Positions 4,639-41,088 of a DNA stretch of 64,000 nt are shown piece by piece; positions within the stretch are counted from its first letter, which is position 1, and every line of letters begins with the position of its first letter. Under the pieces are notes generated by a model that worked only from the letters and a program-made list of their open reading frames with translations, did no database searches and was not told the origin of the DNA. A program made the position numbers and the translations under genes. This stretch comes from Azolla caroliniana. Lineage: Eukaryota > Plantae > Polypodiophyta. The stretch spans positions 8,928,001-8,992,000 of the forward strand of contig JBHGNT010000014.1 in NCBI GenBank assembly GCA_043228905.1, written 5' to 3'.

Positions 4639-4690
<52 letters not shown>

Positions 4691-4776
4691 ATGTATCTTG
4701 TTTCATTCTCATACACAAGTCCTTCAACATCACAGATGTTGTTTGTTCTTCCGCACTGACGATCTTGTCCCCAACA
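1..4776 (+). mobile_element. Ty1/copia LTR retrotransposon (5' end outside window), decayed gag-PR-INT-RT-RH, PPT and 3' LTR
   Basis: gag from ATG ~276 (RFDGSNFNFWKQQMQDYL), protease WLLDSGASFHVT (~1200), LWHGRLGH, integrase DLVHSDVCGP/RTDNGGEF/EQNGIAER, RT (PCKWVY, QLDVKTAFLHG, YVDD), RNaseH (GYTDSNFAG, STSMTEVEY). Many stops/frameshifts. PPT ACGGGGGAG 4436-4444. Confidence 0.95.
4445..4776 (+). repeat. 3' LTR of copia element, contains (CT)n tract
   Basis: TGTCGA immediately after PPT, ends CCCCAACA. TATA-like TATATAAA ~4553. Right end truncates the ORF of the neighbouring gypsy element (TQAK|CWG). Confidence 0.85.
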
Positions 4777-5241
4777 CTTTGCTTGGGTAGCCAGGAGTTG
4801 TTGCCATTTTGAAGCTGTTTTGGGGGTCGATTTTGTCGGTCTTTCCATCTTCCTTTGTTTCATGGGCTCCACCGGTGGTGCTAACAGAGTGAGCCATTGC
4901 GCCACTGCCATCCACATCTTTTTGCCATCTTTTATTGAGATGATGGTAGCGCTCAAGCCATCGGCGATCATTACCGGCCAATCCACCTGTACTCCCTCGT
5001 AGGTAGCTATGATCAAACCGGCTCTATTCCTGGGCATCGCCGGTGGTCAGGGGTATGCATGACCATACTCATGGAGTACCCGAGCAATTTCCCGAAACAA
5101 TAGGTCTTCACCGCCTTGCGTGCGGTATGCCTTGCTGCCCAGGGAGTATTCACTGAAATACCTCGTCAGCAGCTCCTGTGAAGGGTTGTCGATCGAGTAT
5201 ATTCCCCCTTCCGGTAAGCTGGTCAAGGCTCGGATGGCTTC

Positions 5242-5828
5242 TGTTAGGAAATAGGTCCCTCCGGATGGGAAGTGAGAGGAATCGAATGACGAGTACCCGG
5301 CTACGGAAGACCCGGTAAAAACCGGATGACAAGTACCCGGCAAGAGCTGGATGATGAAGGCCTGGTGAGGAGTGCTCACCGGATGAATGGACATATTCGT
5401 AAATATGTTTTCTGAGAGTCCATCGGGGCTATATTTGTAAATAGCCGAAAAGTCATATTAGTATAAATATGACTTAGGGCAAACTTAGAAAGTGGTTGTC
5501 GTTCTTGTTGGCGCAAGATTAGAGCGCAACAGTGTACAGAGAGTGTGAGAGAGAGGAAGAGGTCGTTGCCTCTGTTGTAACCGCCTCCTGTGGCGAAGAT
5601 AGCAAGCTTGAGGTCGTTGCCTCGGTGCTTTACTATTGTAGATTCTGATATAGTGATAGTTTGCAATCTGTGGGTTACCGTGGTTTTTCCCTAGTTTGGG
5701 TTTTCCACGATAACATCTTGTGTTCTCTCCTCTTCACTGTGTCGTGCATTCATTGCCCGTTTTCTGTGTTTGATTCTAAGCTCAGTTGTGGCCGAGCGTT
5801 GCGCATAGGGAGTGTGTAGTTCCTGACA
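5242..5828 (+). mobile_element. Solo LTR (copia family seen at 31399 and 55045) with 5-bp TSD GCTTC
   Basis: TGTTAGGAA...TTCCTGACA termini. GCTTC at 5237-5241 and 5829-5833. Shares the start motif and the CCGTGGTTTTTCC..GGTTTTCCAC motif with LTRs at 31399 and 55045. Confidence 0.92.
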
Positions 5829-5885
5829 GCTTCCTCATTGATGAACTCTGTGTCGATGTCTTTGACGACATTTTTCGCATCTCCG

Positions 5886-6146
5886 TGCAACGGTGCTTCG
5901 ACTATCCTCAAGAATCCCTCTAGACCATGTTGCTTCAGCCATTTCTTAGCTGCTTTTGAGAGTACCATGCATTCCATGTCGTCATTGTCGTCGGTAGATT
6001 GTGGTAAGATTGTTGCATGCAACGGTGCTTCGACTATCCTCAAGAATCCCTCTAGACCGTGTTGCTTCAGCCATTTCTTAGTTGCTTCTGAGAGTACCAT
6101 GCATTCCATGTCGTCATCGTCGTCGGTAGATTATGGTAAGATTGTT
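5886..6146. repeat. 132-bp (44-codon) tandem duplication in accessory ORF
   Basis: TGCAACGGTGCTTCGACTATCC... at 5886 and 6018; peptide MECMVLS..KKWLKQHGLEGFLRIVEAPLH occurs twice. Confidence 0.9.
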
Positions 6147-9066
6147 ACGCTTGTGTGTTCTGCATGCTCTTGCCTAATCACTCGTAATCGCCTATGTGCG
6201 CTAAGATCTCTGTGTTCATGAAATGAAAGGGACTCTGCATGGCAAAGGTTTGCTTTCTCCATGTGTGACGCCTTTTCTTGATTCCCGCGCATGCATGTCC
6301 TGTACTAATATAGCAGTCGGTTGACACGTGGTGCGTTTTTTAAAGGGCTTTAATTAGCCACCCACCACATCTTTTCAAAGTGCCTATTCGCTCCTCGCCT
6401 CTGCATGATGACCTTTTTTATTTTTTTTACAATTGAGTTTTAGTTAACCAGAAGTATCGGGTCCACAATATGGTTTGAGTCGAAACCCATTGACCCATTT
6501 GCCCATTATCTCACCGGCGAGCGTTCTGAGCCGGTATGAACCATTAAATTCCCGCGTTATCCAATACGGTCTGGTCCACCGGAACCGTAGCTTTCCCGGC
6601 ATCTGACCCATCCAGGTCTGGAACACCAGTACCGGCTTGCCGATCCCGAACCTCTTCTCATTGCCCTTCCGGTGCCGATCCACAAACGCCTTCCTTCGTC
6701 GCTGCTCCAGTTCCAACTACATGAGACTTGCTATCCGATGCTCCTTGAGTTCGCATAATGTGGCTAACCGGATTTTTTGTCTACTCCTTTTCACTTAGTC
6801 GTTCTCTAACCTGTATCCGCAAACTCGAAACCTGAAATTCGATCGGCATCACTACTTCAAGCCCAAATGCTAACCAGAATGGTGTTGACCGGATACTCGT
6901 TTTGTATGTCGTCTGGTATGTCCATAGTGCACTATGCAGCTTGGTGTCCCAATCGGTCCAATTTTCATTGACGATCTTTCACAGGATGTTTTGGAGCGTT
7001 TTGTTTGTGGATTCGGCCAGTCCATTGGCCTGTGGATAATAAGGGGTACTGCGCTTGTGTACCACGACACAGAATGTTGTTAAGCTTTCCACTACTTGAC
7101 CGAGAAAATGTCCGCCTTCATCGCTAATTAACTCGATCGGGCATCCATACCGACACCAGACGTACTCATAGAAGAACTTTGTCGTTGATGCCATAGTGTT
7201 GTCCCGCAAAGCCTTGGCTTCTACCCACTTTGTGCAATAATTGGTGGCGACTATAACATATCTATTGTCGGTTCTCATTGTGGGAGGTTTAAACGGCCCA
7301 ACGAAATCCAGCCCCCATTTCTGAAATGGTTCTAAGGGTAGCACCGGCTGGTGAGGCATCCTTGCCTATTCTGTTGGTTGGCCCATCCGTTGACATAAAT
7401 CACAAACTTTCGCATAGCGAACCGAGTCCTTCAGTGTTGTCGGCCACCATAGCCCATTGTGCCATATCTTTCTTGTTGTAGCGTCCCCGGCATGGTGCCC
7501 TCCGGCAACGCCATAGTGCGCTTCTCGTAATATTGTGTCCTTTTCGTCGCTTTGCACTACTCGCCGCCATATGCCATCCGTGCCTTTGTGGTACAGGGTG
7601 TCCTGTAGTAGACAAAAATGTCGACTTTGTATCGTTAACCGCTTCTGCTCATCCCGGTTCATCTCCTTCGGTGGGAGTCCCGTGCTTAGGAATTGATGCA
7701 TGTTGGTTGGCCACTTGTCTTCGTCAACTACCGTGTTATCAGCTGCCATTTCTGTTGTTACTTTAAACAACTCGGCATCCGGAAACTCATCCGTGACTCC
7801 ATCACCGGTTTCGCCGGAATCTAACCGGCTCAAATAATCGGCAGCCACATGCTATATTCTCGGCCGGTGATATATTTCGAACTCAAACTCTTGTAGCAAC
7901 AATGTCCATCGGGCCAGCTTGCCAATGAGCGATGCCTTTGAGACCAAATATAATAGCGTTGAGTGGTCGACATGAAATGAAAATTTCCTTCCCAATAAAT
8001 AGTGCCTGAACTTGGTAACACTGTAAATCATCCCTAAGGCTTCTCTTTCCATTGTTGAATAATTTCGTTCCGCCTGGGATAGCTTCCAGCTAGCATAGTA
8101 AACCGGTCGGTACCATTTCGGTTCAGTCAGTTGCATTAGTGCGTTGCCGATTGCTATGTCGAACGCATCAACGAACACGTGGAATTCTTTTGACGAGTCC
8201 GGTGCTTGTGATAGTAGTACTTTCAGTGCCCAGTAAGACTCATCCTCCGTATTTGTCCATTGAAACGGTGTCCGGTGAACCGCGGTATGCAACGGTGTAG
8301 CCAGATCAACCAAATAATGGAGCATTCGGCTATGCCACCGGATTTTCCCTAGAAACCGACTCAAAGCTTTGGTCGTGGATGGTGCTGGTGCTTCTAAGAT
8401 TGCTTTGACCTTATCGGGGTCTCCTGGGATCCCTTCCTTGCTGACAAGATGGCCCAGCAATGCACCGCTTGTTACTCCGAACACACACTTTGCTGGATTA
8501 AGGCTTAACCGATAACTCCTGCATTTCTCAAGACATAGCCGGAGGTGTTGGAGATGTTCTCCTTCTCGGCTATACACGGCGAAGTTGTCCAGGAATACCT
8601 GCATGAATGTTGTTGCCGATTAGGAACATGGTCTGCGGTCACTCCTTCGACCTAGACCTCAAAGTGGGTGTAGAACAACGAACAGGTGTTTAAGCGTAAT
8701 GCGTAGGGGAAGAATCCCTGTAACCTATCAATGCATAACCGAGACGGCTACAACCGAATCCCTATCACGGGTTACACTTACGTACTTAAACGCTTAGGTA
8801 TTCAAGACACACATAGTGAATTAGTCGTAACTATACACAGGAAATCAGAGAAGATAGAATTCTATTATCAGGCGTTTCTTTACATTCCCAAAATTACACG
8901 CACCTCCATCAGAGGTTTTCTACCCTTTATATACGCAGGGTCTATTTAGCCGTTCACGCTTCCTACGTGAACCGTTACATGCGTTATGTTCTTATATAAT
9001 TTCTTATTCCTACGCTTTTGTCCGTCGGTTACTCTTCCGGCGGACAACACTTGGCACCCATCTCGT

Positions 9067-11839
9067 TAATCCTCTTCCAAAATGGCCCGGATGTTCGGCT
9101 CTGCTGCGGTGTCCGCATCCGGAGGTGACGTAGGGCCCGTAGGTGCATCGTGCTGTGGCTCCTCTGTTTGGTCGGCTGGTTTCTCTCGGAGTCGCCATCG
9201 CCATGTGTGGGCGGTTCGAGTACGGTGGGCTCTTCTTGAGCTAGTGGGTTGGGCTTCGTCGTCGTCGTGCTTGCAATCGGTTGTGGCTCTGCCTCCATTG
9301 TTACGTCCTTCGTGGTGTCAGCCGTTTTTGTATGTTCCGAGGAGTGGGGCGGAGATTCCGCCTAGTCCGCACCGTTCTCCATGTGGTCTGATGATAGATA
9401 GTGTGGGCTCATGCAGCTAAACCTCTTGTTGTGTAGTGGTTTCGCTGTCTGGTCCTGTGGGGAACTCCGCTCGTCGGTCCCCACTATTCTCCATCGTTGT
9501 CATCTCTGGTGATCGGGCCTGAGGTTCCTCTTCTTCAGTTGTGCCCGGAATTGGCGGCGTGTTGGATTCCTCGTTTGTGCGCGTGTTGCCGGCTTGTGTG
9601 ATTTGGTGAAATAGATCCTCCTGACTTTCACCAAAATCGTCTAAGAGCTGCACGAGTTCTTCGGAGTGTTGGTCTGCTAGCGCACAATAGTCTTGCGTTA
9701 GGTCCTCCCGTACGGCCGCAATGCTCTCCTCATTTAGTTTATAGAACCCTCGACCGTCTTTTCACCGGTTCTCCCAGTCCGCACGATATGCGTGCAATTC
9801 CACTGCTTGGGTTGCCCACGCCATCCATCCTTTGTCCAACGCCATTTTCAATTGTGTCGTGAACCTCTCCCGATTTGTTTGGAGAAGGATCCGCACGTTA
9901 TCTGTGATGGCCTGGCAACGGTTGTGTGCGTTTTCCATCGACTTCTAGAGATTAGCGATTTCCTGTTGTTTAACCGCTGCCTCTTCCTCATACGTGGCCT
10001 TCAGGCCCGCCCACAGCTGTGATTCCTTTGCATGTTGCTCTTCTAATTTCCCCATTTCATTGTTTAGGCGGATTTCGAGCTGATGCCTTCTGTCTTGTTC
10101 GACCACCAACTGCTCATCGAACCATACCTTCTTTTTTTCTAATAAGGCCCAGAGTCCCACTATTGCCGCCTCCGATTTCTTCGCGTCCTCCCGTAATTGG
10201 GCGTTGTCCTCTTTTGTCCGGATGTGTTGAGCTACCTCCGTAGCGAGTTTCTCTTCAAGGGTTTTTACTGCCTTCTGGCCGTTAGCCCGTATCTCCTTTT
10301 CTCTGTCTGAGGATTGGCGTAGTTCTGCTCGAAGGCGGTCAATTTTTTATTCCGCTAGTTGCACGGCCCTTTTTGCTTTTGAGGCGATGGCGGTCTGGGC
10401 CTCGATTTCTTCTTTTAGAGCGTCGATGACGTGGTTCGGTGGCGGGGTTGCGTGTTGCGCCGTAGTCGCGTGAGCTTCCAACTCCGCGATGCGTGCGTTG
10501 GCTTTTTGCAGTTCGGCTTGGGTTAGTTTAACCTTCTTCCAGACATTCTTATTTTTTATGGCCATCTCCTTGGCGCCCGTGCTGACCTTTGCTAGTTCCT
10601 GATGGACTTCGACTAGGGCTGTGTTTAAGGGGGGGTATCTCCATCCCCACTCGGTGTACCCCGGCGTTCCTCTGTCTGCCGACCTTGGCTAGCCGGTCCT
10701 CATCGTCGCTCTCCGTTCTTTGTGTTAGGGCACGCTCGATCATCTGGTGTTCCGCATGCTCTTCGACCATTCGTTGGGCGGCTTTTACCTGTTGCGTTGC
10801 CAGGAACTCCATGAGCTCAAAAGAAGTACCAAACTGCAAGAGGGCACTGAACTCGTGGGCCATGTCCGGAATATCCGGATATGTCAAAACGTCGCTTTCC
10901 GCCGTCAATACGGCTTTCCCTCGTTGGGACTGGGTCGTAATAATCGGTCGTGGCCCCCGGATGACTTCGAAGGTGGTATTGGGTTCCGCTGCTGCGGAGC
11001 CGTCACCTTCGGTCGGTGTCTCTGTTGCCGTGGGGGTGTTTTTTACCAAACCCTGCCCATCTTTCCTGTCCAATCTGCGCCGTTTTGGTATGGGGCTTTC
11101 CCGCCGTGTTTCGGTGTCTGGATCTGGGGCTGCTTCCATGGAACATGTCGGTTGTTTCTCCTGTGTTGTCCGTGTGTCCAGCTGGTCGGAAGGAGGTGTT
11201 GTCCTTGAGTCTGGCTGGGCGGGTTGGGATTCCTCTTCCCACTCAGGGGCCGATAACTCCGCTAACCTGCGTTTCGCGGATTGGGGCGGGGCAATGGGTT
11301 GGCTGGGCTGCGGTGTCGGCAGGCGTCGGGGTGGAAATAGTACCGTAAGGTATTGTTGGATGATCGGCCTGAGCTTTTTGCCTGCTTGGTACGCATGCAA
11401 GCCTTCCCTTAACGTTGGCCCTGTGATGACCCCCCAAGTCCACGGCACGTCCTTCAAAGGTATCGATAATGATGCCCGCCTTCTGCTTAGGCATCCCATA
11501 TGCGTTGACATGTACGCAGCCGACTTCTAGCAGGAACTTGGCAACTTCACGGAAGAAGGGATCCGGAATCTGCTTCATTCTATAGGCCTTGGCTAAGGAG
11601 GAATATGGACCAAAATACCGTTGCAGCGCCTATGCAGGAGGTATTTAGAAATGTCTTTCTCCTAGTGAAGATAGGTCCAACTTCTTCCGGATGGAAGAGT
11701 TGGTGACCGTGTCGATTTTAAGCTTCCTGGCGATGTCCATGGCATCCAGGTGCGGAGGTGCTTCTGCGACCCGGATGTAACCATCCAGGCATTTCTCCAC
11801 GAGCCATCGGTGTAGGGCAGTAGAGTTGAAGATCGGCAT
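9067..11839 (-). pseudogene. Decayed ~900-codon accessory protein: conserved N-terminal domain, Pro/basic linker, long coiled coil, acidic tail
   Basis: Consecutive frameshifted ORF pieces from MPIFNSTALHRW (ATG 11839) through FFREVAKFL..., ELQKANARIAELEA, QEIANL to stop ~9067. Similar to 4777-6150 and 35755-36660. Confidence 0.75.
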
Positions 11840-11997
11840 CGCCAGAGTAGGTTCGTGGGGAGGAGACGGGTGGTTGCGGTGAGTTGGAGCTCTGTGATAG
11901 GATGGGGGAGAAGGTGAGGGGGAGGAGCGATGGGAGCGATGATAGCTAGAAGATGGGTTTCTGCTGTGTGCAGAAAATCTTCTGTTTTCTTCTTTTT

Positions 11998-12015
11998 GTC
12001 CCACCAAGCGTGCCA
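11998..12015 (-). promoter_or_regulatory. Primer binding site, tRNA-Arg type
   Basis: TGGCACGCTTGGTGGGAC 4 nt inside the 5' LTR; resembles the complement of the plant tRNA-Arg(UCU) 3' end (from recall). Confidence 0.8.
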
Positions 12016-15000
12016 AAAGTGTTGCCGATTAGGAACACGGTTCGCGGTCAGTCCTTCGACCTAGACCTCAAAGTGGGTGTGGAACAACGAATAGGTGTTT
12101 AAGTGTAATGCATAGGGGAAGAATCCCTGTAACCTATCAGTGCATAACGGAGACGAATACAACCGAATCCCTATCACAGGTTACACTTACGTACTTAAAC
12201 GCTTAGGTATTCGAGACACACACAGTGAATTAGCCATAGCTATACACAGGAAATCGGAGAAGATAGAATTCTATTATCAGGCGTTTCTTTACATTCCCAA
12301 AATTACACGCACCTCCATCAGAGGTTTTCTGCCCTTTATATACGCAGGGTCTATTTAGCCGTTCATGCTTCCTGCGTGAACCGTTACATGCATTATGTTC
12401 TTATATAATTTCTTATTCCTACGCTTTTGTCCATCGGTTACTATTCCGGCGGACAACAAATGTCAGGATGAACTTTCCAAATATTTCCATGATTATTCGT
12501 TGGAAGGTCGCCGGCACGGTCTTGAGCCCGAACATCATTACCACTGCGACGAAAACTCCCCATTCGGTGATGAATGCCGTCTTGTCTTGGTCGTCGGGGT
12601 GCATCCTTATTTGATTGTAACCGCTGAAACTGTCTAGAAAGTTATACACTTCATGACCGGCTACCGCGTCCAGGACTCCATCCGTAAATGGAAGTGGAAA
12701 GGCGTCAATCACTATTGCCGCATTGAGTTTTCGGTAGTCGACGCACACCTGGATCTTACCGTTCTTTTTCGGCACGACGACTATGGGGCTTAACCATGTA
12801 GCTTTTTTCATTGGTCGGATAAAACTAACTCGTAGCAACTTGTCAATTTCCTCTTTGACCTTGGCCACATAGTTGGGGTTCATTCGGTAACGCCGTTGTG
12901 CTACTGGTTTGGCATCCTTACTGAGATGTATCTGGTGTTGGTACAACTGAGGATCCAGCCCCCGCATGTCTTCATATGACCAGGCGAATACATCCCGGAA
13001 TTCCTTTAATAAAGTGATCATCGTCGTCTTGTTGTCCGGTGACATTTCCTTAGCAATATGAACCGGTCTTGCGTCGTCCCCAGTTCCTAAGTTCACTTCC
13101 TCTAACTAGGATGCTTTCATGTGTTGGGATACCGCCATCTCCCTCTCCAGGGCTTCCTGTGCTTGTCATAATTCTCTGATAGCTTCCCGATCCGGTTCCT
13201 CACTGGCATCATCTGATTGCGTTATATATGGTGACACTGCTTCTGCCACATCAATTTCAAATAGGGGTACAATTTTTGGGTTTCCTTCTAAGTATTGGTC
13301 GACCTCTTCGTCCGCAAGCCCCGTGAGCATGTTTACCCCTTCCACATATAGCGGTGTCAACCCCTTGCCGGTACTTGCTCGAGGGTGGGTAGGTACCCTT
13401 ACTTTAGTCTTTCCTCACCGGAAGGTAATCATGTTTTTCCACCAGTTTTGTTTGATATGCGTCATTTTTAGCCATGGGCGGCCCAGCAACAGCGGGTAAG
13501 CCCCTTGCGCATTGACCAGGAGAACCACCGCCGAAATGCGGAATGTGTGTCCTCCGATAGTTACGTCTAGACCCCGTATCAAACTTGTATCTGCCATCCG
13601 GAGCCAAAACTGCCAAGGCTCCTATTCTTGGATTCCCAAGGTATTACAAGTCCGTAGACTGATCAAGTTCACGCCCAATCCTCCGTCCACAATCGTCCCT
13701 GGTAGTTCTCATCCTTTGACGATGGCGGTGATTGTCGGACTGTTCATGTCCACCACTGTTGGCCCTTCTTCCGGATTTGAGAAGAACGCAGGAACCGGCA
13801 ACAGAATTGATGTGGTCATTCCAGATTTCAGCCCTTCCATAAACCGGGGCACTAGTTGTAATAACCGACCCAATGGCAGCGTAATCTGACATTCTTGTAA
13901 CGCTTGCCATGTTGGGTTTTTCGGCTGAATCGTGTTGGTGGCCTCTTTCGGCTTCTCCTTTTGTTGTTCAAGCTCAGCCACATTCTGCTCATTTTCCTTC
14001 TTCACCCACTCAGTGGCTTGCTTTCGGATTGCCTCCTGTGTTTCCCACTCCGTTGTTTTGCCTTTTGCCCTAGTGGTGACTTGTTGTATGTCGGCGACTT
14101 CTTCTACCAGCATATTTACGGCTGGTCTTTTCTCGTAGCTTTTAACCGGACATTGATTATTGTAATGTCCTTCTTGTCGGCAATAGTAGCAGTACGCTTT
14201 CCGGGTGTTGATGGATTTGGCGTTCACTCCGATACCTAGTTGAGGTCCTATTGGTGGTCGGTTGGGTACTTGGTGTGCCCTTGTCCGGCTGCCACTAGCG
14301 GTCCTCCTTTCCAACATTCCATTATTTATTGAAGCATTTTTTGTTCTGGTAACCCTGTCGGGACCGATTTTCATAATTGCCTTGATCCTCCCTCCGTTGG
14401 TTGTAATCGGGAGAGTGATCTCGGTTGTATCACTCATATCGTTCACCGTTGTAATCCCGGTAGCTATCCTGCCGGTCTCGGTCGTGAGCGTCCTTTCTGT
14501 CACTGTTCCAGATATCTTGTGACAGCCAGTAACGCTCATCTCGCTGCCAGCGTTCTTCTTCTTCCTCCCGGTTATTCCGAGGTTTGATTTGCCATACCGG
14601 TGCCGCTTGCCTGTTCAGCAAGTTATATTCGCATAGGTCTATTGTGTGTGCCCTGGAATGGCATAACATGCACTGTGTCTGCATGGTACATTCTATTGTT
14701 GAGTGCCCGGCATTGAGACAAGTCGTACATTGTATAGCTTGCCGAAAACGTAGGTCGTCTTCTGTTGGTAATGTACACTGGAGTGCCCCCATTGTTAGCC
14801 ACGAGCTTGTTTTCTCCATCTCCCTGACCCGTTCTATGACTTGGTCGATCATGCTGGTGCGGAAATCAATCACTGCGCACACTGTACGCAGGGGTTCCCA
14901 GAGTGTTGCTAGGAATATTGCTTTAACCTCTGCCTCTGGTGGTGCCCGATTGAGCTGACTGTGCATTCGCTGGAATCGGATCACGAATTGCTAAATGGTT

Positions 15001-16530
15001 TCCGTAGGTTCCTTCCGTATGGTGTAGAATAGGTTGACCATCTCCCATTGATCCACCTCCTTGTTGAAGAACTGTAAAAATCTGGTTTTTAAGTCCTTAA
15101 ATGTCGCGATGGTGCCGGGAGTGTGCGTCAAGCGCCATCGCGCGGCTGGTCCTTCCAAAGTCATGCCAAACTCTGCAATCTTTACACTACGCACACCGTA
15201 CACAAGGGTTCCTTGAGTGTGGCTAGGAATATTGCTTTAGCCTCTGCTTCCAGTGGTGCCCAATTTAGCTGGTTGTGCATTCACAGGAACCATCGCGCGG
15301 CTGGTCCTTCCAAGGTCATGCCAAACTCTGCAATCTTCGAACGTTCTGCTCGTCGGCGGTCAAACATTGCGATACATGGTTTGCTTCCCATGTTTGTAGA
15401 AATGCATAGACATGAGCTTCTGCATCCGGATCATCCCGGTACTTGGGATATTGGAACGGCATATCGTCGTCCGGTGTCGGAACACAAGCTGGTGGTGTTG
15501 GAGGTCTCCCCTCCTCTTATTTCGGTGTCAGAGGTCTTTCCACCACTTGCCAGTCTAGGGCTTCCAATTCTATTAAGTCTGGTTCTGGTGTCGGCAAGGT
15601 ATCCGACTACTCGTCCTCCGGTCCGTTTGGGGTGTCGTGGCTGCTACGGTAATTCGAATGGGCATTGCATTCGCCGTCTGAATCCGATTTGAAGGCCGAG
15701 AACGGTTCCGAATCGCCTCCCCTTGTTGCTAGTGCTTGCAGAATGGATTCCACATCCCGGAGATTGCTCAAGCTGCTTCCTTCGTCCGGTTGGGAATTCT
15801 GCTGCCCTCGGAGTGACTCCACAACCACTCGCCGGATTACTTTGGAAAATGAACAATCCGCACGGATCTCTTCAAATGCCTGCTGGAAAGCCTCTCGCTT
15901 TCGCAATCATTCGGCAAGTCTTCTCACTCGCTCCGTAACTGGGTCGTTTGTTGGTCTAGTCATCCATGCCCGTCGTTGTTCGCTGCATTTGTGCAGGAAT
16001 CGTGGTCGCCAAAAACTGTGTTATCGCTAGGGCTAGACAATGGCCTAACATAAGGTGTCCCTTTGAGACACTTCACCCAAGGGGTGTTGGGGTGAGATAA
16101 AGTTAGACCAACTATTAATGAAACCCTAATTGGTTACTAAGCGGCAAGATCATTAGTCACAATACACGCGTAGGATAAATTATACTTAGCCCAGAACGGT
16201 AATTAACAATGATTAAGATACAGAACAACAGCACTCTATTAATTATCCGCTACTAATTACAATCTAACCGGGCCCTTTTATAGGTCTCCGGCTCTAGGTA
16301 CAAACCAGTGCCAACCGGCAACCGGCTACGAACCGGTCCGGATCCAGATCGGCATACCGATTCCAGGTCCATCCGTTCGCATCTCAAAATCATAATAATT
16401 CTATAGTATATATATAATCAGCTCCTGGATATTAATTATCCCCTTCTTCCATTTTGGACTTTCCTTGCCGGCCGGTTAACAAATAATGGTGATGTGACCG
16501 GTTCTAATGTCTTTCCCTCCATGGGCTATA

Positions 16531-19500
16531 AAAGAGTGGGAATGGGTCAGAGTCCACGACTCCATCATGGACTTGGTGAAGCGGAAATGGCTTTCGACAG
16601 AGCTGGAGCCGGAGAAGCCGGTGGAGGTGCGAACGACGCACCTGGAAGATATGGCCCAGGAGGATGAGTTGGCGGAAAGCCACTATTCGAGGTTGCATTG
16701 GGCTAGAGCCACCACGGAGACCCCCGTTCGGATCGGAGACTTCAGGAGCCGGTGCTGGCGTTGGTAGACCACGGTTCGGAGATCAACCTGATCTCCATGG
16801 ACTTCTATAAGAAGGGTAAGTGGCCGATCAACACCAAGCACGGGTGGAAAATACAAGCGGCGACGCGCGCCACGAAGGAACTACACGGGACCTGCCCAAA
16901 TGTACAAGTGAAGATCGACAATGTCGAGATCGATCAGCACTTCTTCGTGCAGGAGACATCCTCATACCCGGTGATCCTCGGCGAACCGTACATCACGGTG
17001 GCACGCATGCAAATGAAGGTGCTAGATAATGGTTCGGCGTACGCCCAAGTGAAGAGCCAAGATGGGCGGCACTCCGTCCAATTTCTAACGGTGCGACCGA
17101 ACCACGAGCGCAACCGCGAAACCCTCAGCGGCGAAGACCGAGGGGATTTTTAGAGAGGGCTATCAAGGCGTGGGGCTGCGATAGTCCGGACACCCCGAAA
17201 AAACCCCACAATTGTAGCATAGGAAGGAAACCCTGTACTATAGAGAAGAAATTCTGGTTCTCCGACAACAGAGGTTGTACAATAACCGGCATTAGCGACC
17301 GGGAGAAGAAGCGGGCGTGCGGAGTCCTAGGCCCCGATGAAGTGATAGGCAGTGCCATGAAGGCGGTCTCTTTCAATGACACCTTGGGAGATCTGAGGAA
17401 CGTGCTTGAAAAAGGCCTCAGTGAAGACCGGATGATTCCGGTTAGTTCGAAACGGATGTACGAAGTCATCGCCGACTTCAGGAAAGGGGCCTTCCCGTGT
17501 TGATACAAGGTACAAGACTGTGGACCGGAAGGTAAGCCCAGTCACAACACCCTTGCCGGAGGGCAGCGAGTTATGGATGAAAGGGGTCACATCGGACCCA
17601 AGTTTACGAGATCCGGCCGGCATAGGACACCAGTTCACCGACATAACGCTACGGAAGCTCAAGGTCAGTGGGGGTGGCTTTCTAATGCCGGTGGGGGAGG
17701 AACGGTTTCGGAGAATGCTCAGGAGGCACGGGAAGGCCTTCGCATTCTCACTGGAGGAGATCGGGTGCGTAGACCCGACGGTCGTTGAAGCAATGGTTAT
17801 CTTCATTGTACCACATGTACCGTGGAATCTCAAGCCGATTCCAATACCCAAAGCTCACATCCCGAAGTTGATGGAGTTGTTGAAGCAGAAGGTGAAGATA
17901 GGCATCCTCGAGCCGTCGAGTGCCCCGTATTCAAATCAGTGGTTTACCGTGCCAAAGAAGAACGGCACGTTGCGCTTCATTCAGGACCTGCAGTCGATCA
18001 ACAAGGCGACCATTCGGAACGCTGGAATCGAACCGACCATTGACGAGTTCGGGGAGGCCTTCACCAAAAGGTCGATTTACTCGATCGGGGACCTGTACTC
18101 GGGGTATGACCAATTCCAACTAGATGAAGAGAGCATGGATATTATGACGATGCGGACTCCTCTCGGCCTGGTGCGGATGTGTACCCTTCTGCAAGGAGGG
18201 ACGAACGCGGTAGTGCACATGGTGAATGCGATGAATAAGGTGCTAAGAGACTATATCCCGGACATTACCATGCCCTTCTTGGACAACATCCTGATCAAGG
18301 GATGTCCGGTGGAAGATAGGGACAAAACGATTGAATCGGATGGGTGTCAGAAATTTGTTGCGGACCACATCGGCGACTGCGAGAAGGTGCTACAAAGGCT
18401 AGAGGGCGCGCGGCTCACCTTCTCTGGGAGAAATCGGCTTTAGGACAATCAGAAATCATGGTTATCGGACACCTGTGCTGGCCTTATGGTCGGAAACCGT
18501 CTCCAACCAAGGTAGAAGCCATCTCCACAATGAAGGGAGACTGCAAGTCGATTACGAAAGTCTGGAGGTTCTTGGGAGCTTGCGCGTTCCACCACATCTG
18601 GATCCCGCATTACGCCCACATCGCGGAGCCACTCTATGGGTTGTTGAAGAAAGGGCGCAAAATCGAGTGGAGCAGGGAGCATACGGAGTCGGTCCGAAAA
18701 ATGAAGGAAACACTTGCTGCGGCACTGCCGCTCAGGAAAGCGGTTTACAGAAAGGATGTTCCAATTTTTGTAACCGTAGACACGAGTCCGACCAGGATAG
18801 GATGGGTGATCAACCAGGAGGATGAGAATGGTATGAGGTTCCCCATCCAGTTCGGTGCGAAAGTACTCAGCGAATCGTTGTTCTATCCAATGACGTCTCA
18901 CAAAATTGGAACGGATCGAATAGATAATGATAAGTTTCAAGCAACATATTATAGATAAGGAAATCCTTGAATGGAGAGCGGTTCCATTTCCATCTACTTC
19001 TATGAACCAGAAGCCTGAAACGAGTGAATCGCTCCTGCAAGTCTTCTATTACAATGTTTTGATACAAGTGAATGGGAACAAATGTCTGTGGATATTGCGG
19101 ATGTATATGCATAAACTAAGTTTCTTTGACGTATTCGGAATGTCGCTCCTCATCCGGAGGGGATTTATTGCACTGCTTGACAGATGATTTAGTCATCGAT
19201 TTCGGATCATACCCACGATAGATAAAAAAATTCAGAATTTTTTTGTTTGAGAGATGTTTTTCGCGCTCCCTTCTCATACCGTAAGTGACATAAAGCCTAT
19301 GCACCAGTTCTTGCTTCGCCAACAAACAACGATGTGGGGAAGGAATATTAGGATCCGGCTGGAACAGAAGCATGGGATCCCAGACAAAGCGCCCCCCAAG
19401 AATCGAGTCGGTTCATCGGATCGATTCCATTGTGTTTCATATTGATTGGACGAGTCGGAGATTCCCAATTCCAAAAATTGCTCACGTAACGAGAGAGACA

Positions 19501-21205
19501 GCAAGGATATGCTTAGGTTAAACGCGAACTCTAGGGTATCATTTCGGCGGTCAAGGCCGACAGAGACTACCTGATCGGGATAGAGGTAATAATAGAGACG
19601 GACTGCCTACCGATCCTCGGTATGGTTTCCGGATGCACGACACCGGACCTAGCGATGCTCAGGTGGATCATGTACATTAAGTCCTTGAACCCAGAGATAC
19701 GACACATTTCCAGGAAGGACAATGCCATCCATGGCTGACATGCTTTTGAGAGCGAGGTTTGATGATGAGGGCGGCATGGTTTCGGAGGATGAGGAAGTCG
19801 GCGTGGACTTCTTCAAGACGGCTTACGTGACAACGAGAAAGGGGAGCACTCTGGCGCTTAACGAGTTCGACGAGGGCAAGTACGACGGGGAGTGGCTCCA
19901 GATCGCCGGGTTCCTAAAGACGATGACACCAGACGTGGCGTGGACAAAGGAAGAGGCTAACCGGATCCGGAAGAAAGCGTACCTATTCTTCCTACGGGAC
20001 AGAAGCATATGGAAGCACTCGAAGAAGCGAGACAGCATCCCACTCTAGGTAGTGGCGAGGAAGGAAGAGCAGGAGGCATTGCTGACGGTGTACCACGAGA
20101 GTCCTTGGGACGGACATCGCGAGACATGGGCCATGTTTGAGACGTTGAAGGAGAAGTATTGGTGGTCGGGACTATACCGAGACGTGCATCAGTTCGTGAC
20201 GACTTGTGAAAGTTGCCAGATGCACTCCATAATCCGACATCATGATGAGCTGCACCCGAGTTACCCGCCGACTGTCCACTTCAAGTGGATGGTGGATCTG
20301 GTGACGATGGCGATGGGAGTAGGGCAAATGTGGTACCTGGTGCTAGCACGAGAGGACCTGATGAATGAGGTGGAGGGTCGCGCATTACAGAACAAGACGA
20401 TCGCGGCCGTGTGCCGGTTCCTGATCGAGGAGGTGGTATGCCGGTACGAGTGCGTAGGGAAGATCATAGCTGACTTGGGAGAACTGGACGCACAAGAGGC
20501 CAAAGAGTTGTTTAATCAGTTGGGGGTTAAACTCTCACTCACCACGGTGTACAATCCGGAGGCGAACAGGAAGGTGGAGGCGGGCATGGGCCAATCGTCA
20601 AAGCGATAGTACGGGCATCTGGAGGCCAAGTCGAAAATTGGCCGCGGCTCCTACCTTATGCGTTGTGGGCAGACCGAACTGTGCGTAGTTAGGTAACCGG
20701 GTTCATGACAGCAAAGCTTATGTATGGCAGAAGCCGATCATGCTGATGGAGTGAATGATCTCCTCGTGGGCCGTGGTGGGCTAGAGAGACAACATGAGCC
20801 AGGAGGAGCTATTAGCGGCACGAATCCGACAGTCCGAGAGAAGACTGGAGGACGTGGACAAGCAACGGCAAAGCTACGTATGACGAGGGCAAGCAACAAG
20901 GGACGATTCGACTAGACTCACCGGGTGCGACCGAAGAAAATCGAGGAAGGTGATTGGGTTCTAGTCTACGACAGCAGCCTCGACAACTAGCACAAGGCGA
21001 TGCAAAAATTTGCGAGGAGGTGGTTCGGGCCTTACGCAGTGACGAGCGCCAACGACCACGGCACCTACCATCTCGCGGAGCTCGACGGAACAAGGATAGC
21101 CGTGGTGGTGGCCGGGAAGAGGATCAAGGCGTTCAAGAAGCGGCATGAGGATGAACCGGACCCAGAGAGCGTGGATGACAGTAACGACCGGATTGAGGAG
21201 GATGA
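16531..21205 (+). mobile_element. Ty3/gypsy pol (PR-RT-RH-INT), decayed, atypical/fungal-like motifs
   Basis: Protease LALVDHGSEINL; RT PYSNQWFTVPKKNGTLRFIQDLQ...DLYSGYDQ...GGTNAV...PFLDNILIKG; RH VTVDTSP; integrase HESPWDGH..CESCQ, KWMVDLV, RWFGPY. Confidence 0.9.
18874..19495 (-). other. ycf2: Nuclear plastid DNA insertion (NUPT): ycf2 3' fragment
   Basis: Interrupts gypsy RNaseH at KVLSE|RQQGYA. Minus-strand translation EQFLELGISDSSNQYETQWNRSDE...EDLQERFTRFRLLVHRSRW...NMLLETYHYLF resembles the Ycf2 C-terminus (FELLIHRQRW...NTLSESYQYLSNLF in seed plants). Confidence 0.75.
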
Positions 21206-21804
21206 CCAGAACGTGCGACAAACATTACGCCATCTCCTAACCAGAACGTGCGAGCAAAACCGAACATCATGGACATCTTGGAGGATGAATAGAGGGATGG
21301 GTCTGACGTACCATGGCACTGTCCCACAGGCATGCCAGGTGTTGTCTGCCAGAATTGTAACCGCCGGACAAAATGCATAAATATATTAGAAGCGTTAAGA
21401 AAAGAAATGTAACAGTTCACGCGAGAAGCGTGAACGGCTGAACACCCTGTGTATATAAAGGGCAGAAATCCTCTGTAAGAAGTAGCGTGTAATTTTTAAG
21501 CGGGAGGTTTTCTTTTCTAATAGAATCTTATCTTCTCTAATATTCGGTGTCCGTGCAACCCGTGTTGTCTTGTGTAATCTTTGTACTATGCGTAAGTGCA
21601 TCTTTGAAAGCGTAGGGTAAGAGTCAGTGTAGTAGCGCACTCAGGTTCTCGGTCGTAGCCATGAACCTTCACCCATAGGATACACGTTATTACGCAACCG
21701 ATGAAGTACGGCTCACGCCTCGTGTGACGGCCTACCTTGCCATGCAATCACCTTGAGGTCTATCTCGAAGGTTTGAAGATAGACAGTGTTCCATATCGGT
21801 AACA
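21206..21804 (+). mobile_element. 3' end and LTR (21340-21804) of an element related to 8611-12458, fused to the gypsy integrase end
   Basis: TGTTGTCTGCC...ATCGGTAACA aligns with the reverse complement of the 8611 LTR (TATATAAAGGGCAGAAA, TTGAGGTCTA). The sequence before it resembles the accessory ORF end. Confidence 0.8.
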
Positions 21805-26876: not shown

Positions 26877-28835
26877 TCATACAAGATGCCGCAACAGATG
26901 CAACAGCATCGCACTCCAAGTGTCGATCGCCCCTGGTAAGCACCAATGCAGACAGTCATTCTGCACCTTGGCATGCTTATCATGTGCAAACGGCTGGAAA
27001 TTCCTGTACGGACCCGGATGTGCATCGGGCCTCAATAATGAAGCATGTATAGTGTCGGCGATTTTGAGCTGGAAACTAAATTCTGACCTCTTGAGCAGCG
27101 TTTTACCAAACTCTTCAAGTTGAATCTTGTACATCTCTGCTGTCATACCTTCAAGAGCCACAGAGCTGCTGTCGAAGGGAAGAGTCCTGGTGCAGTTTCC
27201 ACCATTATCCCAACGCCCATTCTCAAAATGGTCAGGTGTAAATGTTCGGAAAAACACGATCCCCTTGTACTTGGATGAAATGAGATAGTCGAACACAGTC
27301 CTTAATGTGAATCTATATCCATAGTAGAACCCCACTTCTGAGACATTCAAGCTGAGGCTGTTGTGGCCACCGATCAACTTGTTTGCTTTGAAGTACACCG
27401 AGGTTTTTAAGAACCATTGCCCCGAAGATAGGACAATGTAATCATATTTGTGCAAGGAAGATGCCCAACTTTGGTCTACCTTATCCAAATGCAGTTTCTC
27501 TATGCCCTTTGCAAAGCCCTCAGCATCATCTTCAGTGCCTTGAACAAGGAACGGAGCCCATATAATGGCCAAAGTGAAATTATAGGATCGGAAATACCAC
27601 TGGATATTCTGATCTAGATCATCCCGGTACAGGTTTTCAGGAACCTCAACCTGTGCTTCATCACAGAGAGACATGCAGGAAGTTAAAAACACATACTGTT
27701 TAATTCATCTACCCAATAATCTGAACATCCAATAATTTACCACCACCACAGGGGGCATGTGTCAAGAGAACTTCTCTCAAAATCATGGATTCTTTCAGGC
27801 ATGAAAGTAGAAGTTGAATGGGAGGAGGAGGTTGGGTACCTGGGACAGTGAGCAGAGGAAAGATTGAAAATGGTTCCGAGCTATGGAGTCTCCAATAAAT
27901 GCCCAGGATTTCCCAGTGACGAGAGTTAAGTAGTGCTTGGCATCAAACAAAGGTAGATCGCAATCATTAGGCTTCCATCGCCAATACAAGTACTCGTGAT
28001 CCGGTCTTCCATTTTTCAGGCAATTTTGGTGCTCTTGGATGAAATGGCAGGTGGTATTTGTGTATCCCGGCCCAGCCGGGTTTGGGATCCAGTCTCCTCT
28101 CCAGATGTTGCACCCCCCTACAAAATGAATCCCCATATCATCTCTCAAACACCGTGAATGAGTTGGAATAATCAAGTAGGATTTAAGGTTAAAAAAGCAT
28201 CTTAAGTTAGCAAGCTGAGATTTGAACGAGAGTGAAGCTACTAAGCTTTGGCTGCCATCATCACTCTTATGGTCCACTTATCATACATATCCTCTCTCAC
28301 TCTCACTCAAAAGTAAATGGCCAAAATCAAGGCAAAGCTTCAGGTTCATTCAGCAAAAAACATCTAAAACTAACACAAAACGATGAGCACAACAGGTACC
28401 TACCTACCTACTGAGACCTCGTAAATTTTATATTATATAAGCTACTGAGTCCTAAGTAGTCTTTTGGTGAGCAAAGGACGGCTTACCCACATTGAAATCG
28501 ATAAGATTTGTAAGATCTGGAGGAGGAGGAGGAGGTAGATGTGGCGGTGGCGGTGGGTATTGAGGATCGGCAAGGCTTTGGCTTTGGCTTTGGCTTTGGA
28601 TGGAAGAAGCAGAAGTGGGCGTACTGGAGAAGAAGAGAATGCGAGCAAAGATGATGGGCAGGGCGAGCGCCAAGCAAGCAATGATGAGCAGCTTCTTTAG
28701 CTTCCAAGAAGAAGAAGAAGAAGATATTATGTTTGCAGCTTTGATAGGAGGAGAAGGAGGCGAGGATGCAACATCTAGACCACTTACAAGGGAATAGCCA
28801 CCACCGACGACGCCCACCATCTTCTTCAGCTCCAT
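26877..28835 (-). CDS. TRICHOME BIREFRINGENCE-LIKE polysaccharide O-acetyltransferase (TBL/DUF231), 3 exons: 28835-28487, 28117-27840, 27650-26877; 466 aa
   Basis: GT-AG introns with matching phases, 1401 nt open. N-terminal TM helix LLIIACLALALPIIF, Pro-rich stem, GCNIWRGDW/CLKNGRPD TBL domain, catalytic GDS (FIGDSIARN) and DxxH (NDCLHWCLPG). Motifs resemble the AXY4/TBL22-27 group. Confidence 0.93.
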
Positions 28836-33289: not shown

Positions 33290-36200
33290 TGTGGTTACGT
33301 AGGAGGGTACGATAGGGCCAAGTAGGCTGATTAGTTACACGATACTCGGCCACAACCGGTATTTTCCTTACGACTTAAGAATAGCCGAAATGACAGTACA
33401 AATTACAGAAACAGACACAGAGGTGACCCAATAAGTACAGTAACCATTCGGTTAAGTGCGTGCCCACTTAAGTGCACTATTCTATTAAGTGCGCTTTTTA
33501 TAGGCATAAAAATCCAGATCAAGAAAATTACATTGTTTCAGGACAAAATTACATCAAACAAAATTAGAACTAAGTTCCAAACTTTCAAAAACAAGAAAAT
33601 CATCATCAAAAATAGAAATTGTTCCATACATTATTTCTACCTCTCCAATCATTAGGAATGCCAAAGCACTAGGAAAATAAGTGTTATCATATTAGATGCA
33701 CAAGCAAAATTCCCTATTAGAAGGTTTATTTCGTATGTTGAGGATCCAACTAATGCACAACCAACAAAATGTTCTATTAGAAGGTTGATTTCTTATGTTC
33801 GAGGAGCTAATTTCATGTAAAAAGCCCGATCATCATGAAAAAAATCACGATTTCTTATGTTAGAGGAGCTAATTTCATGTAAAAAGCCTGATCATCATAA
33901 AAACAATTCATGATTTCTTATGTTAGAGTAGTCAATTTACAAATAAAATTGATAATTAAAATAACATTGACAAAGATTTACAAATCAATCTTTGAAGAGA
34001 ACCAACAATTTATTCAATTATTGCAATGTTTATTTTGAAATTTATGTTACAAATCAATGCTTTCATAGAAACCTTCACAAATGTTTATAAAAAGCTTCAC
34101 AAATTTCTATTACAAATCATTTTTTAATAGAAACCTCCATAAATGTTTGTAAAACCATTCATAAAATTCTGTTACAAATCATTTTTTAGAAGAAACCTTC
34201 ATAATGTTTTCCAAATATTGACTAATTTCTATTATAATTATACATATTTTCAGAAAACATACATGATACAAATTTCTACTATAATTATGCATATTTTCAG
34301 AAAACATGATTTATAAATAGTCGCAACAAATTTTGGCAGTGATGTATGCATCAACGGTGAACAACAACGTGGGGAGCAACATGGGAGTGATTAGAGTATC
34401 AACATTGTCGTGCCTTTCGGCTCCGGATCGTTGTGTGAGTTGGGTGGGAACCGCCGAGGTTTTGGACTAGGAGGAAGAGGAATACAACTTAAGGCTAGTT
34501 ATGAATAGTAGAAAGAGAAGTAAGATAGCAATCTCGTGAATCCCACGAGTTTAGTGTATTTAAAACAATATTTAGATTATAAGAGTAATTTAGATGGCAA
34601 AATTCGTGAATCCCACGAATATAGTAGATTGATCAATCCTTGTATATTAATCAACAACCTTATACATATTTCTCTCCTCCTTATATAAAGATGGAAGAGG
34701 CTAAGCATGGCTTCATGCTTTTTCACAAAAAGTGTCCATGCACACTAAATGTGTATGTGATGCTTTGTCATTTCCTAAGTATAGGGCTCATGCACGCTAG
34801 ATGTGCATGAGTCACTTATAATGTCACGTGTAAATAAAATATTCACACTCTAAAGAATACATGATTTTTACCTTTTAATAAAGGTATGTGTAAATAAAGG
34901 TCTTATACGTATTAAATCTATATGTATAATATTAAAGATAAGTTATTACAATGATAAAGTTGAGGTTTATCTGCGTGGAGGTGTAGGGTTTGAATCTTGC
35001 CCTATGCACGTGGTAAATATTTTGATATATTATTTATTTATTTATATGTATCTAAAATCGGATATATTATTTTATGGTTTTCACGTAGTGTGTGGAATAC
35101 ACTACGACAACGTGGGTATGATCATAATCATGGAGTGATTAGAGTGGATGTAGGTTCGGTGTTTTCTGAAAATGTACAGAGAGAAACATTTTTGGGGGAA
35201 AAAAATTTCATGTAAAAAGGCCTAAGTGCGCGGCTCGGTTAAGTGTGCACTTTGGCACTTAACCGAATGGTTAATGTATGTATATTGATTACGAAATAAA
35301 ATTGATTACAAGGCAACACATGGCGATTATACTCGTCACACTCTCTTATATTATAACATATGCATATATATATTCACCCTTTTTCTTCTATTATTCCATG
35401 ATTTATATAGCCTATTGTGCTTCAAGAACTTTCCCTAATTAACGGCCTTTATTCTCGGTTGCATATATTTTGTTCTACCTTCCTCTGCTATGCGTGCTTG
35501 GCCGATTCCCTTTTTACCTACTTGACCTACTCATCTCTTTAGATTTGTTTCACACCTCATGCCCTTTTGTCCCACGGATAACACATGGCACGCCCTGGGA
35601 CAGTGCCTTGCACGTCGAACTCAAAAAGCACTAAATTTTTTTCGAAATCGTGAAATTGAAAAGAGCCGAAAATTGATATTGTACAGTTAAGTCTTCTTCC
35701 AAAATTGATGTGATGCCCTCCGGTTCTCCGACTACCCCAGTTTGAGATCGGCCTTCAAATTGGCCCTTTGCTCCGTGGTCTCTTGGGATTTCGTTCGTTG
35801 TGCCAACTCGGAGTCGCCTCCTCCTGGGTTAGCTCGGCCGTAAAATCGAGTTGTTGGTCTGTAATTTCCGTCGTGGCGCCCGTAGCCCCTTTCTCTTGCT
35901 TTGTCTCTTTGGTTTGTTCAACCACTTGTTCCCTTTCCAAGCTTAGGCGTGGCCCCTCTTCTTCTTTTGGCTCTTGGGTTGTTACCTCGGTCGTCAAGGC
36001 CCTTGTTGTGGCTTCTGCTTCTTTCTTAACTCGAAGGTGTTCGTGTTTATAGCCTTTGGTTTCAATCATGAGCAATAGTTGATCATCATTAAATTCCTCG
36101 AGGAGGTTTCCAATGGCCATGGTGTGTGTTCGGGCCAAAGCTTGTAATTCCTCAGTGTGGTCTTCACGGAGGATCTTAATGTTATTCTCGTCCATCTTGT

Positions 36201-36660
36201 AAAAACCACGACCCTCTTTTTTCCGATTTTCGGCGTCTGCTCACAAGATTTGCAATTCGGCTGCTTGAGCCGACCATTCATTCCATCCTTGAGCTAGTGC
36301 CGCTTCGACTTTTTGATTCAGCTTTAGCTGGTGCTTCGCCACTGGTGCCTTCACTCGGGTTTCGCCCATTTCATATTTGGCCCGGAGAGTGTTCATTTCC
36401 TCTTTAGCCGTCACAGCACCCCGTTCGAGCTTGGCTTTGAGGATCTCGCACGATACGGTAACTCCGACGATCTTTTCTTCCATTTCCTTCATATGTAAGT
36501 CATAGTGTCAGAGGAGTTGATTTGAATTATCGGCTAACTCCTGCAGATATCGGTCACGTTGATGTTTGAGTTCTAGTATCTAGGAAATTTGCAATTGGTG
36601 GAGGGACTCCAACAATGTATATTTCTCCTGCTCAACTTCTTTTAACAATTGATCATGCAC
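33290..36660 (-). mobile_element. 3' end of an element of the 8611 group: accessory-ORF C-terminus and 3' LTR (inner end 35583), LTR split by a mariner-type element
   Basis: ORF pieces 35755-36492 (GRGFYKMDENNIKILREDHTEELQALA) match the 8611 ORF (KLNEESIAAVREDLTQDYCALA). LTR end CTTTTGTCCCACGGATAACA. Left boundary approximate. Confidence 0.7.
33438..35276. mobile_element. Non-autonomous Tc1/mariner (pogo-like) DNA transposon with TA TSD
   Basis: TA|CAGTAACCATTCGGTTAAGTGC ... GCACTTAACCGAATGGTTAATG|TA. Subterminal TAAGTGC repeats, AT-rich interior with ~60-bp tandem repeats, no transposase ORF. Confidence 0.88.
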
Positions 36661-40300: not shown

Positions 40301-41088
40301 AAAATTTCAAAAGCTCAAGGGCATGAGATGAAATTTCAAAAGCTCAAAGGCATGACTTGAGATTTCAAAAATTGGAGGGTAGAATGTCGAATTTCAAAAA
40401 CACAAGGACCGAAAATAAAATTTCAGAAAATTTGAGGGCAAAACTTTTAGAGACCAAGGGTACAAAATACAAAGCTCAATTCACATGACGAAACCAAAAA
40501 ATACACATACATGTAACATAATCATGAAAGGCCCATGCCGCAATGGAGGAGCCAATTGGTGTGTGATCCAATTGAGCAACATGCTAACTGAATGAAAAGG
40601 TTTGAGTCAAGCAATGCTCCGATCGAAGTTATCGATCGTACAACTATGATCCGGTCGACGGATTTCCGACCGTTGAGACGACCGATGGAGTTCTGATCGT
40701 TAATAGTTGCCATGGCGAGTGGGTTCACCGTGCGATGCACTGTCCCACAAGCGTGCCATGTGTTACCCGTAGGAGTTGTACGGGGCGATATAAGGGTAAA
40801 ACACGTTAAAGGGGTTGTTCGGTATGTGTAATGTATATGAGTGTGAGGATGAGTATGTGTGAGCACATGCAGAATTATGTGCATGTGACAAGAATGTAAC
40901 GGTCTCTTTTTGTAACAAACATATTATTTACCATTACATTATGTATTATATAAACCCCTTATGGGGCATGTAATGAGACATAGTTTTTTCCCCTCTCATT
41001 TTGATGTCATTTCCTATTTGTCTCTCTCTAGCTCTCTCCCTATCGTAACCCCCTTGGGAGAATGGCTTCACCCCCCACCCCAACAACA
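37343..41088 (+). mobile_element. Complete non-autonomous LTR element with TSD AGCAC and PBS-like sites inside both LTRs
   Basis: LTRs 37343-37686 and 40761-41088. AGCAC at 37338-37342 and 41089-41093. TGGCACACCGGGTGGG at 37691 and GTCCCACAAGCGTGCCA at 40742-40758. No gag/pol motifs. Confidence 0.93.
39410..39990. repeat. GC-rich minisatellite (GGCCGAGA-based subunits, 124-bp higher-order period)
   Basis: CAAGAATA(T/C)GGCC recurs at 39661, 39785 and 39909; many GGCCGAGA(C/T)G subunits. Confidence 0.85.

Follow-up and report, generated by a model that had tools for sequence, protein, structure and literature searches.

In yeast Ty3 and other LTR retroelements primed from a polypurine tract (PPT), a purine-rich stretch of the element's own RNA serves to start the plus strand; PMC5371799 and PMC3185511 treat this priming as common to retroviruses and LTR retrotransposons. 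Extended contacts between a tRNA and an element are described for the split primer-binding site (PBS) of Ty1 and Ty3, where the acceptor stem and the T arm pair with two separate blocks, divided in Ty1 by a small internal loop; as described in PMC5371799, this pairing takes place on RNA and primes the minus strand. Helenus TRIMs are LTR elements with a tRNA-derived sequence, which lies inside the LTR, serves as a Pol III promoter and leaves a normal PPT in place (PMC10886601). Among plant non-chromoviruses, the Athila, Tat, Phygy and Selgy lineages are characterized by a tRNA-Arg PBS, an extra 3' ORF and a 5-bp target-site duplication (TSD); the sections of Neumann et al. 2019 (PMC6317226) at hand make no mention of a tRNA-like 3' site.

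The locus presented here lies in a window of 64,000 nucleotides from Azolla caroliniana, plant DNA crowded with nested LTR retrotransposons whose named protein homologs come mostly from liverworts and a fern and make a seed-free host likely. Immediately before a 3' LTR it carries a split copy of positions 49–76 of tRNA-Arg(UCU). On balance, its letters are best read as belonging to a plant Ty3/gypsy element of the non-chromovirus type, at whose 3' end this copy has replaced the PPT and a host tRNA-Arg would prime the plus strand. The feature is real, conserved and unusual. LTRs, a tRNA-primed minus strand and a primer signal directly upstream of U3 are shared with PPT-primed elements, but mixed-base, tRNA-matching sequence stands here in place of their purine-rich RNA. 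Compared with the split PBS, the site has the opposite orientation, is found at the 3' LTR and would act on minus-strand DNA. The tRNA-Arg PBS, the extra 3' ORF and the 5-bp TSD recur here as in the four plant lineages, whereas the tRNA-like 3' site is additional and the closest full-length relatives lack a second RNase H. In contrast to Helenus, the site is located outside the LTR, is devoid of the tRNA 5' half and takes the place of the PPT; ARAGORN and Rfam returned no tRNA gene or Rfam match within the window.

Coordinates of the features in the window (position 1 is the first letter of the window).
Feature	Position	Strand	Remark
tRNA-Arg(UCU) positions 49–58 copy (T stem 5' strand and T loop)	21297–21306	+	7/10 letters match in this copy; compared with the tRNA fragment in L055
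14-nt insert with 4-bp hairpin, between tRNA positions 58 and 59	21307–21320	+	13 nt in the four other copies
tRNA positions 59–76 copy including CCA, without position 66	21321–21337	+	minus strand reads as a primer-binding site
2-nt spacer, CCA to LTR	21338–21339	+	spacing compared across intact sites
3' LTR, TGTTG to TAACA	21340–21804 (end ~21804)	+	TATA-like word 21452; no PBS behind
C-terminal remnant of accessory ORF, stop 21290–21292	21205–21292	+	only remainder of the element's internal region
Broken PR-RT-RH-IN of a different Ty3/gypsy lineage	16600–21200	+	relatives use an ordinary PPT
Second site copy	40719–40760	+	before 3' LTR 40761–41088
Third site copy, without two tRNA positions	35584–35624	-	downstream of accessory-ORF homolog 35953–36405
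Fourth site copy (tRNA-like 56431–56447)	56426–56470	-	5-nt spacer; LTR related to 40761 LTR
Sites on the 3'-LTR side	21321, 40742, 35586 (-), 56431 (-)		L055 18-mer match
True PBSs behind 5' LTRs	11998–12015 and 37691 onward	- and +, respectively	4-nt spacer, 18-mer match
Complete sibling element	8611–12458	-	LTRs 94% alike, 5-bp TSD, tRNA-Arg PBS 11998–12015
Likely autonomous lineage member	4750–16480	-	5' LTR ~16020–16480; PBS 16002–16011, different tRNA end; 3' end lost

The letters at 21314–21339, the TGTTG start of the LTR at 21340 and the TATA-like word were verified. The site is larger than first described: the 41 bases at 21297–21337 copy tRNA positions 49–76; a hairpin of 13–14 nt separates position 58 from 59, position 66 is absent, and the copy ends 2 nt upstream of a true 3' LTR. 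The insert breaks the likeness at position 58, a modified adenine at which reverse transcriptase stops on a tRNA. The spacer between CCA and LTR measures 2 nt in 4/5 intact sites and 5 nt in one, against 4 nt at both tRNA-Arg(UCU) PBSs of the window. The T-arm block (49–58) is matched in 7–8 of 10 letters, at a fixed distance, in all five copies; at least 7/10 matches are reached in 1.2% of trials at random window positions, and the block is absent beside both true PBSs of the window. One stem pair of the insert hairpin is broken on the plus strand of the 21307–21320 copy by a letter found in ~1% of the contig depth. At 21332, 87% of the depth in the public run X1 carries the letter of the tRNA, which indicates that the 21297–21337 copy has decayed.

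The end of the accessory ORF and the TATA word had previously been taken to mark the PPT position, and both hold: the ORF stops just upstream of the site, and the 3' LTR that contains the TATA-like word is not followed by a PBS. The complete sibling has a 3' LTR (8611–9049, minus strand) that matches this one over its entire length; the 21340 LTR is related to both sibling LTRs (8611–9049 and 12020–12458, minus strand); the full-length match and the missing PBS identify it as a 3' LTR. It has no partner LTR in the window. The C-terminus of the accessory ORF resembles those of the sibling, of the 35586 element and of L090, a contig that holds a fifth copy of the site. The copy at 21205–21804 is a dead, 5'-truncated fragment.

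The pol region upstream (16600–21200) was considered as the parent of the 21340 LTR and ruled out, because its relatives have PPTs without the motif and the contig depth drops at the junction. Relatives of the integrase ending near 21200 were collected in one metagenome scan, with 80 loci fetched and 79 anchored. The motif was found within 1,500 nt downstream of the integrase in 0/79 anchored loci, a negative result for the upstream-pol lineage that is no test of the motif-bearing lineage. A G-rich tract was present by pattern in 60 of the 79, with a mean of 70% purine, and most of these relatives have a hairpin of their own, such a tract and an LTR that starts differently. At 21196–21219 the contig depth is as low as 84, with peaks of more than 100,000 to both sides. 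The absence of the motif from the relatives, their own G-rich tract and the drop in depth show the locus to be a fusion of two lineages near 21205, and a 14-nt direct repeat (21205–21218 and 21240–21253) marks the junction.

Two further observations concern the upstream-pol lineage (L031–L109; window 16600–21200). A hairpin with a 6-bp stem and an 8-nt loop, with two-sided changes visible between families, is found just before its G-rich PPT, no more than ~150 nt past the stop of the integrase frame; a PPT-using lineage thus also has a hairpin next to its plus-strand primer. In the window, its RNase H region is broken at 18878–19490 by ~600 nt of unrelated, AT-richer DNA.

The typical marks of the 3' junction of an LTR retrotransposon (TG...CA ends, paired LTRs and a TSD) are found in the relatives 37343–41088 and 8611–12458, the copy at 21340 having its 3' LTR alone. 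Element 37343–41088 has a 5' LTR (37343–37686), a PBS from 37691 and the site before the 3' LTR only, flanked by a 5-bp TSD; this TSD and the pairing of the LTRs exclude that the site is the PBS of an inverted nested insertion. The element is non-autonomous, no retroelement domains being found in it, and long minus-strand open frames run over tandem repeats of 25–63 nt at 39152–40343. The sibling speaks against a need for the site in priming: ~31 nt of its 3' site at ~9050–9063 are missing, yet its LTR ends are exact. In runs X1 (11 and 9) and X2 (10 and 8), contigs are found in which an intact site follows upstream sequence of the sibling type. As such contigs run into the intact site and the sibling LTRs differ by 6%, a deletion after insertion is plausible.

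No purine tract precedes the LTR at any of the five intact sites. The longest purine run is 2–4 nt and purines make up 53–60% of the last 15 nt before the LTR; no run longer than 4 was found in the last 20 nt, and in none of the five does a purine-rich tract stand directly before the 3' LTR.

The LTRs behind the five sites fall into four groups, with local scores of 59–310 within groups and of 18–29 between groups, against shuffled maxima of 20–31. That the 21340 LTR belongs to a family other than that of 37343 had been noted before and is borne out by a score of 19 between the 21340 and 40761 LTRs, for a shuffled maximum of 23. The site is kept across four LTR groups with no clear likeness to one another. 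Public runs under four organism labels contain it (451, 512, 24 and 14 contigs). In X8, a run under another organism label whose share of words from the region is 0.00, the pieces listed extend over 21311–21350 only and their loose ends bear the T-loop word. The depth in X1 reaches 122,540 at 21316–21339 and is mostly 3,000–6,000 along the LTR body; a second peak of similar height, 116,365 at 21460–21483, is centred on the TATA word, which shows that any shared word produces such a peak. Junctions of true PBSs, when read in reverse, may add to the peak at the site, but those have no insert, and the insert is covered too.

The last 18 nt of the tRNA, taken from L055 as an independent query, gave six matches in the window at a score of at least 10, for 0.43 expected (30 shuffles, maximum 2). 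All six adjoin a TGTT LTR end at 2–5 nt: two are the true PBSs and four are sites before 3' LTRs. The tRNA 3' half in L055 comprises the T arm, CCA and an anticodon that reads TCT; its Rfam hit to tRNA has an E of 0.007 and scores under the gathering threshold. In 59 of the 80 scanned metagenome loci, ARAGORN had no hit.

It is presumed that the plus strand is initiated as follows, and we lean towards this series of events (annealing of a tRNA on minus-strand DNA, priming, removal of the tRNA and trimming of 2 nt) from the letters and from models of pairing. RNase H would clear the RNA from the minus-strand DNA. A host tRNA-Arg would then anneal in two blocks (59–76 and 49–58), the minus-strand hairpin being looped out between them as in the Ty1 split PBS. 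Reverse transcriptase would extend the CCA of the tRNA into the plus strand, RNase H would remove the tRNA primer, and the integrase would trim the two spacer bases, as at a PPT-primed end.

When the tRNA 28-mer and the minus strand were co-folded, the same two-block duplex with the 4-bp hairpin looped out was predicted for 5/5 copies, with a net energy of -18 to -31 kcal/mol (RNA energies were used as a stand-in). Compared with the tRNA, the copies display 15 substitutions, including 9 G>A, 1 T>C and 1 C>T; ten (the 9 G>A and the T>C) are tolerated as wobble pairs in the duplex of the tRNA with the minus strand. The wobble argument is weak: along the entire compared stretch no change is more frequent than G>A anyway (52 against 34 C>T in run X1), a different tRNA isodecoder may account for three of the G>A (cf. 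the PBS at 11998), and the search words favoured intact C runs.

The main rival to priming by a host tRNA is a primer made of the element's own RNA. The tRNA-like T-arm hairpin would leave the hybrid by folding, escape RNase H, be cut after CCA and be used like a PPT by a reverse transcriptase that recognizes the shape of a tRNA. This is possible but doubtful. The host tRNA and the element's own RNA have the same letters, so that the sequence alone does not separate them. The position and the 2-nt spacer would be identical, no invasion of a hybrid by a tRNA would be needed, and the minimum-energy fold of the plus strand consists of the T stem and the inner hairpin with a freer 3' tail in 3/5 copies. 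However, where the 5' strand of the T stem has changed, the CCCAC side does not follow: 0/5 pairs change on both sides and 79% of the cells are paired, one row being misaligned by a base. The inner hairpin is likelier on the minus than on the plus strand in 3/5 copies and about equally likely in one; on the minus strand its probability is 0.74–0.98 in 4/5 copies (RNA energies), and in the 21307–21320 copy it is 0.00 on both strands. The letters of the T loop are kept, for which pairing with a real tRNA gives a direct explanation. At all five sites the fold is no better than that of shuffles (z +0.2 to -1.4), and the score of the full structure, T stem plus hairpin, is matched by 42/500 shuffles (n = 5 copies).

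Alternatively, the site might be the PBS of an antisense transcript starting in the 3' LTR, the element being copied from either RNA strand. The layout is symmetric, with an LTR end, a short spacer and a PBS on both strands, and strong pairing (-37 to -48 kcal/mol) is predicted between the tRNA and the site as RNA. This is nevertheless unlikely, for the TATA-like words point one way only and sense replication would be left without a plus-strand primer.

Somewhat less probable still is pairing of the site with the element's own 5' PBS, for circularization, as a minus-strand self-primer or as a shield against tRNA fragments, with unspecific priming of the plus strand. The two are complementary in families that use tRNA-Arg(UCU) (-19 to -34 kcal/mol), but in element 37343–41088 the pairing with the PBS of another family is stronger (-34) than that with its own (-19), no partner for the T-arm block is found next to the PBS, and the exact TGTT ends need an exact primer end. 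The L090 family is informative in this respect. The LTR that follows its site and the window LTR 16020–16480 are 78% alike, and in both cases (L090 7659–7668; window 16002–16011, minus strand) the PBS begins with a different, short tRNA match, which may be that of another arginine tRNA. Pairing of this PBS is poor both with the site (-10 kcal/mol) and with tRNA-Arg(UCU) (-9). Since the PBS has a different tRNA end and pairs poorly with it, the site appears to track one tRNA and not the PBS of its own family, although L090, a contig assembled from short reads, may join, or have collapsed, different copies. The two ends of an L090-type family may use different tRNAs.

The preliminary description had seen in the site a tRNA mimic forming a selected, acceptor-like minihelix that ends in CCA and would be cut by RNase Z or RNase H. 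The copy of the tRNA 3' end stands, as does its conservation across diverged LTR families and four organism labels; the minihelix, by contrast, is very unlikely. The TGGCAC/ATGCCA stem is indeed the minimum-energy fold of the 24-mer, although its z is a modest -1.7 and lies between 0.0 and 0.4 once flanks are included. In a 200-nt context its probability is 0.74 here and 0.00, 0.37, 0.00 and 0.27 in the four other copies. Five inner pairs hold in 23/25 cells, one with a change on both sides, but covariation of the stem is at the level of shuffles (227/500), the closing T-A pair exists in 1/5 copies and 23% of the X1 depth at 21314 has a letter that breaks it. The end of a tRNA acceptor is single-stranded. 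The CCA of the site is base-paired in the fold (probability 0.99 in context), and the site is upstream of the LTR, inside the transcript; an acceptor mimic has an unpaired NCCA at the 3' end of its RNA. GCAC, the proposed stem partner, does precede the 40742 and 35586 sites, the latter on the minus strand, and a fourth site was found at 56431–56447 on the minus strand. GCAC pairs more consistently upstream, in the 4-bp hairpin, with 19/20 cells paired and two pairs changed on both sides; at n = 5, covariation is suggestive of this upstream pairing, the two-sided changes being transitions, which DNA methylation also produces.

That the site is a functionless relic, descended from a single ancestral capture of a tRNA cDNA, is highly improbable: such capture does occur, to judge from L055, and the sibling has lost most of the site, but the site has been kept while the LTRs diverged beyond recognition, it is the sole part present in run X8, and there is no other primer candidate at the LTR edge. 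At L055 1165–1211, the 3' half of tRNA-Arg(UCU) with CCA stands within a retrotransposon pol region and looks like an inserted, reverse-transcribed tRNA, which suggests how the site could have arisen.

The likely autonomous member of the lineage is the element at 4750–16480, linked to the site through the likeness of its LTR and accessory ORF to L090. It encodes gag-RT-RH-IN without a second RNase H. Like its homologs, it has the order RT-RH-IN of non-chromovirus Ty3/gypsy elements, no chromodomain and a placement with Athila and Tat. In a quick tree of 44 rows, P0230 having been dropped for short coverage, its RT-RH is found in a clade with Tat proteins bearing an additional RNase H and a Fagus protein (99 SH-aLRT), and groups with Calypogeia and Riccia proteins with a weak support of 80. 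This tree, built without named REXdb references, does not separate Athila, Phygy and Selgy. The second RNase H (PF13456) was not found in P0128, P0130 and P0140, the closest full-length relatives, and was found in the control P0232. Membership in the Tat clade, which PMC6317226 defines by an additional (archaeal-type) RNase H, was therefore rejected.

In the literature searched, which leaves most subscription papers outside its scope, no description was found of tRNA-primed plus strands or of an inverted PBS at a 3' LTR. Viral sequences scanned with a strict pattern gave 0 matches. A loose pattern gave 30 loci, none of which matched the upstream pol protein or had a tRNA gene at the match; the two that were translated look like phage. 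Two protein scans of viral sequences yielded no relatives. GTDB contained one pattern match with no LTR end behind it, which is taken as chance.

Taken over the families, the pattern favours, by a modest degree, a plant Ty3/gypsy clade, widespread in at least one seed-free plant group, that would have dropped the PPT, have both cDNA strands primed by host tRNAs and use a split site independent of the family PBS. If true, a high-copy lineage priming with a tRNA, or with tRNA-shaped RNA of its own, would be an exception to PPT priming. Under tRNA priming, reverse transcriptase would be able to load a tRNA on DNA and have it removed exactly, and a short in-vitro assay could then test the primer specificity of reverse transcriptase and RNase H. 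Such elements would be missed by annotation tools that score PPTs, or mis-oriented, as both ends look like a PBS.

Elsewhere in the window, an element at 57900–59469 has terminal inverted repeats of 211 nt that enclose palindromic 51-nt units arranged in an array; L096 contains a similar one. A host PMR5/PC-esterase (TBL-like) gene is found among the nested elements at 26877–28277 on the minus strand.
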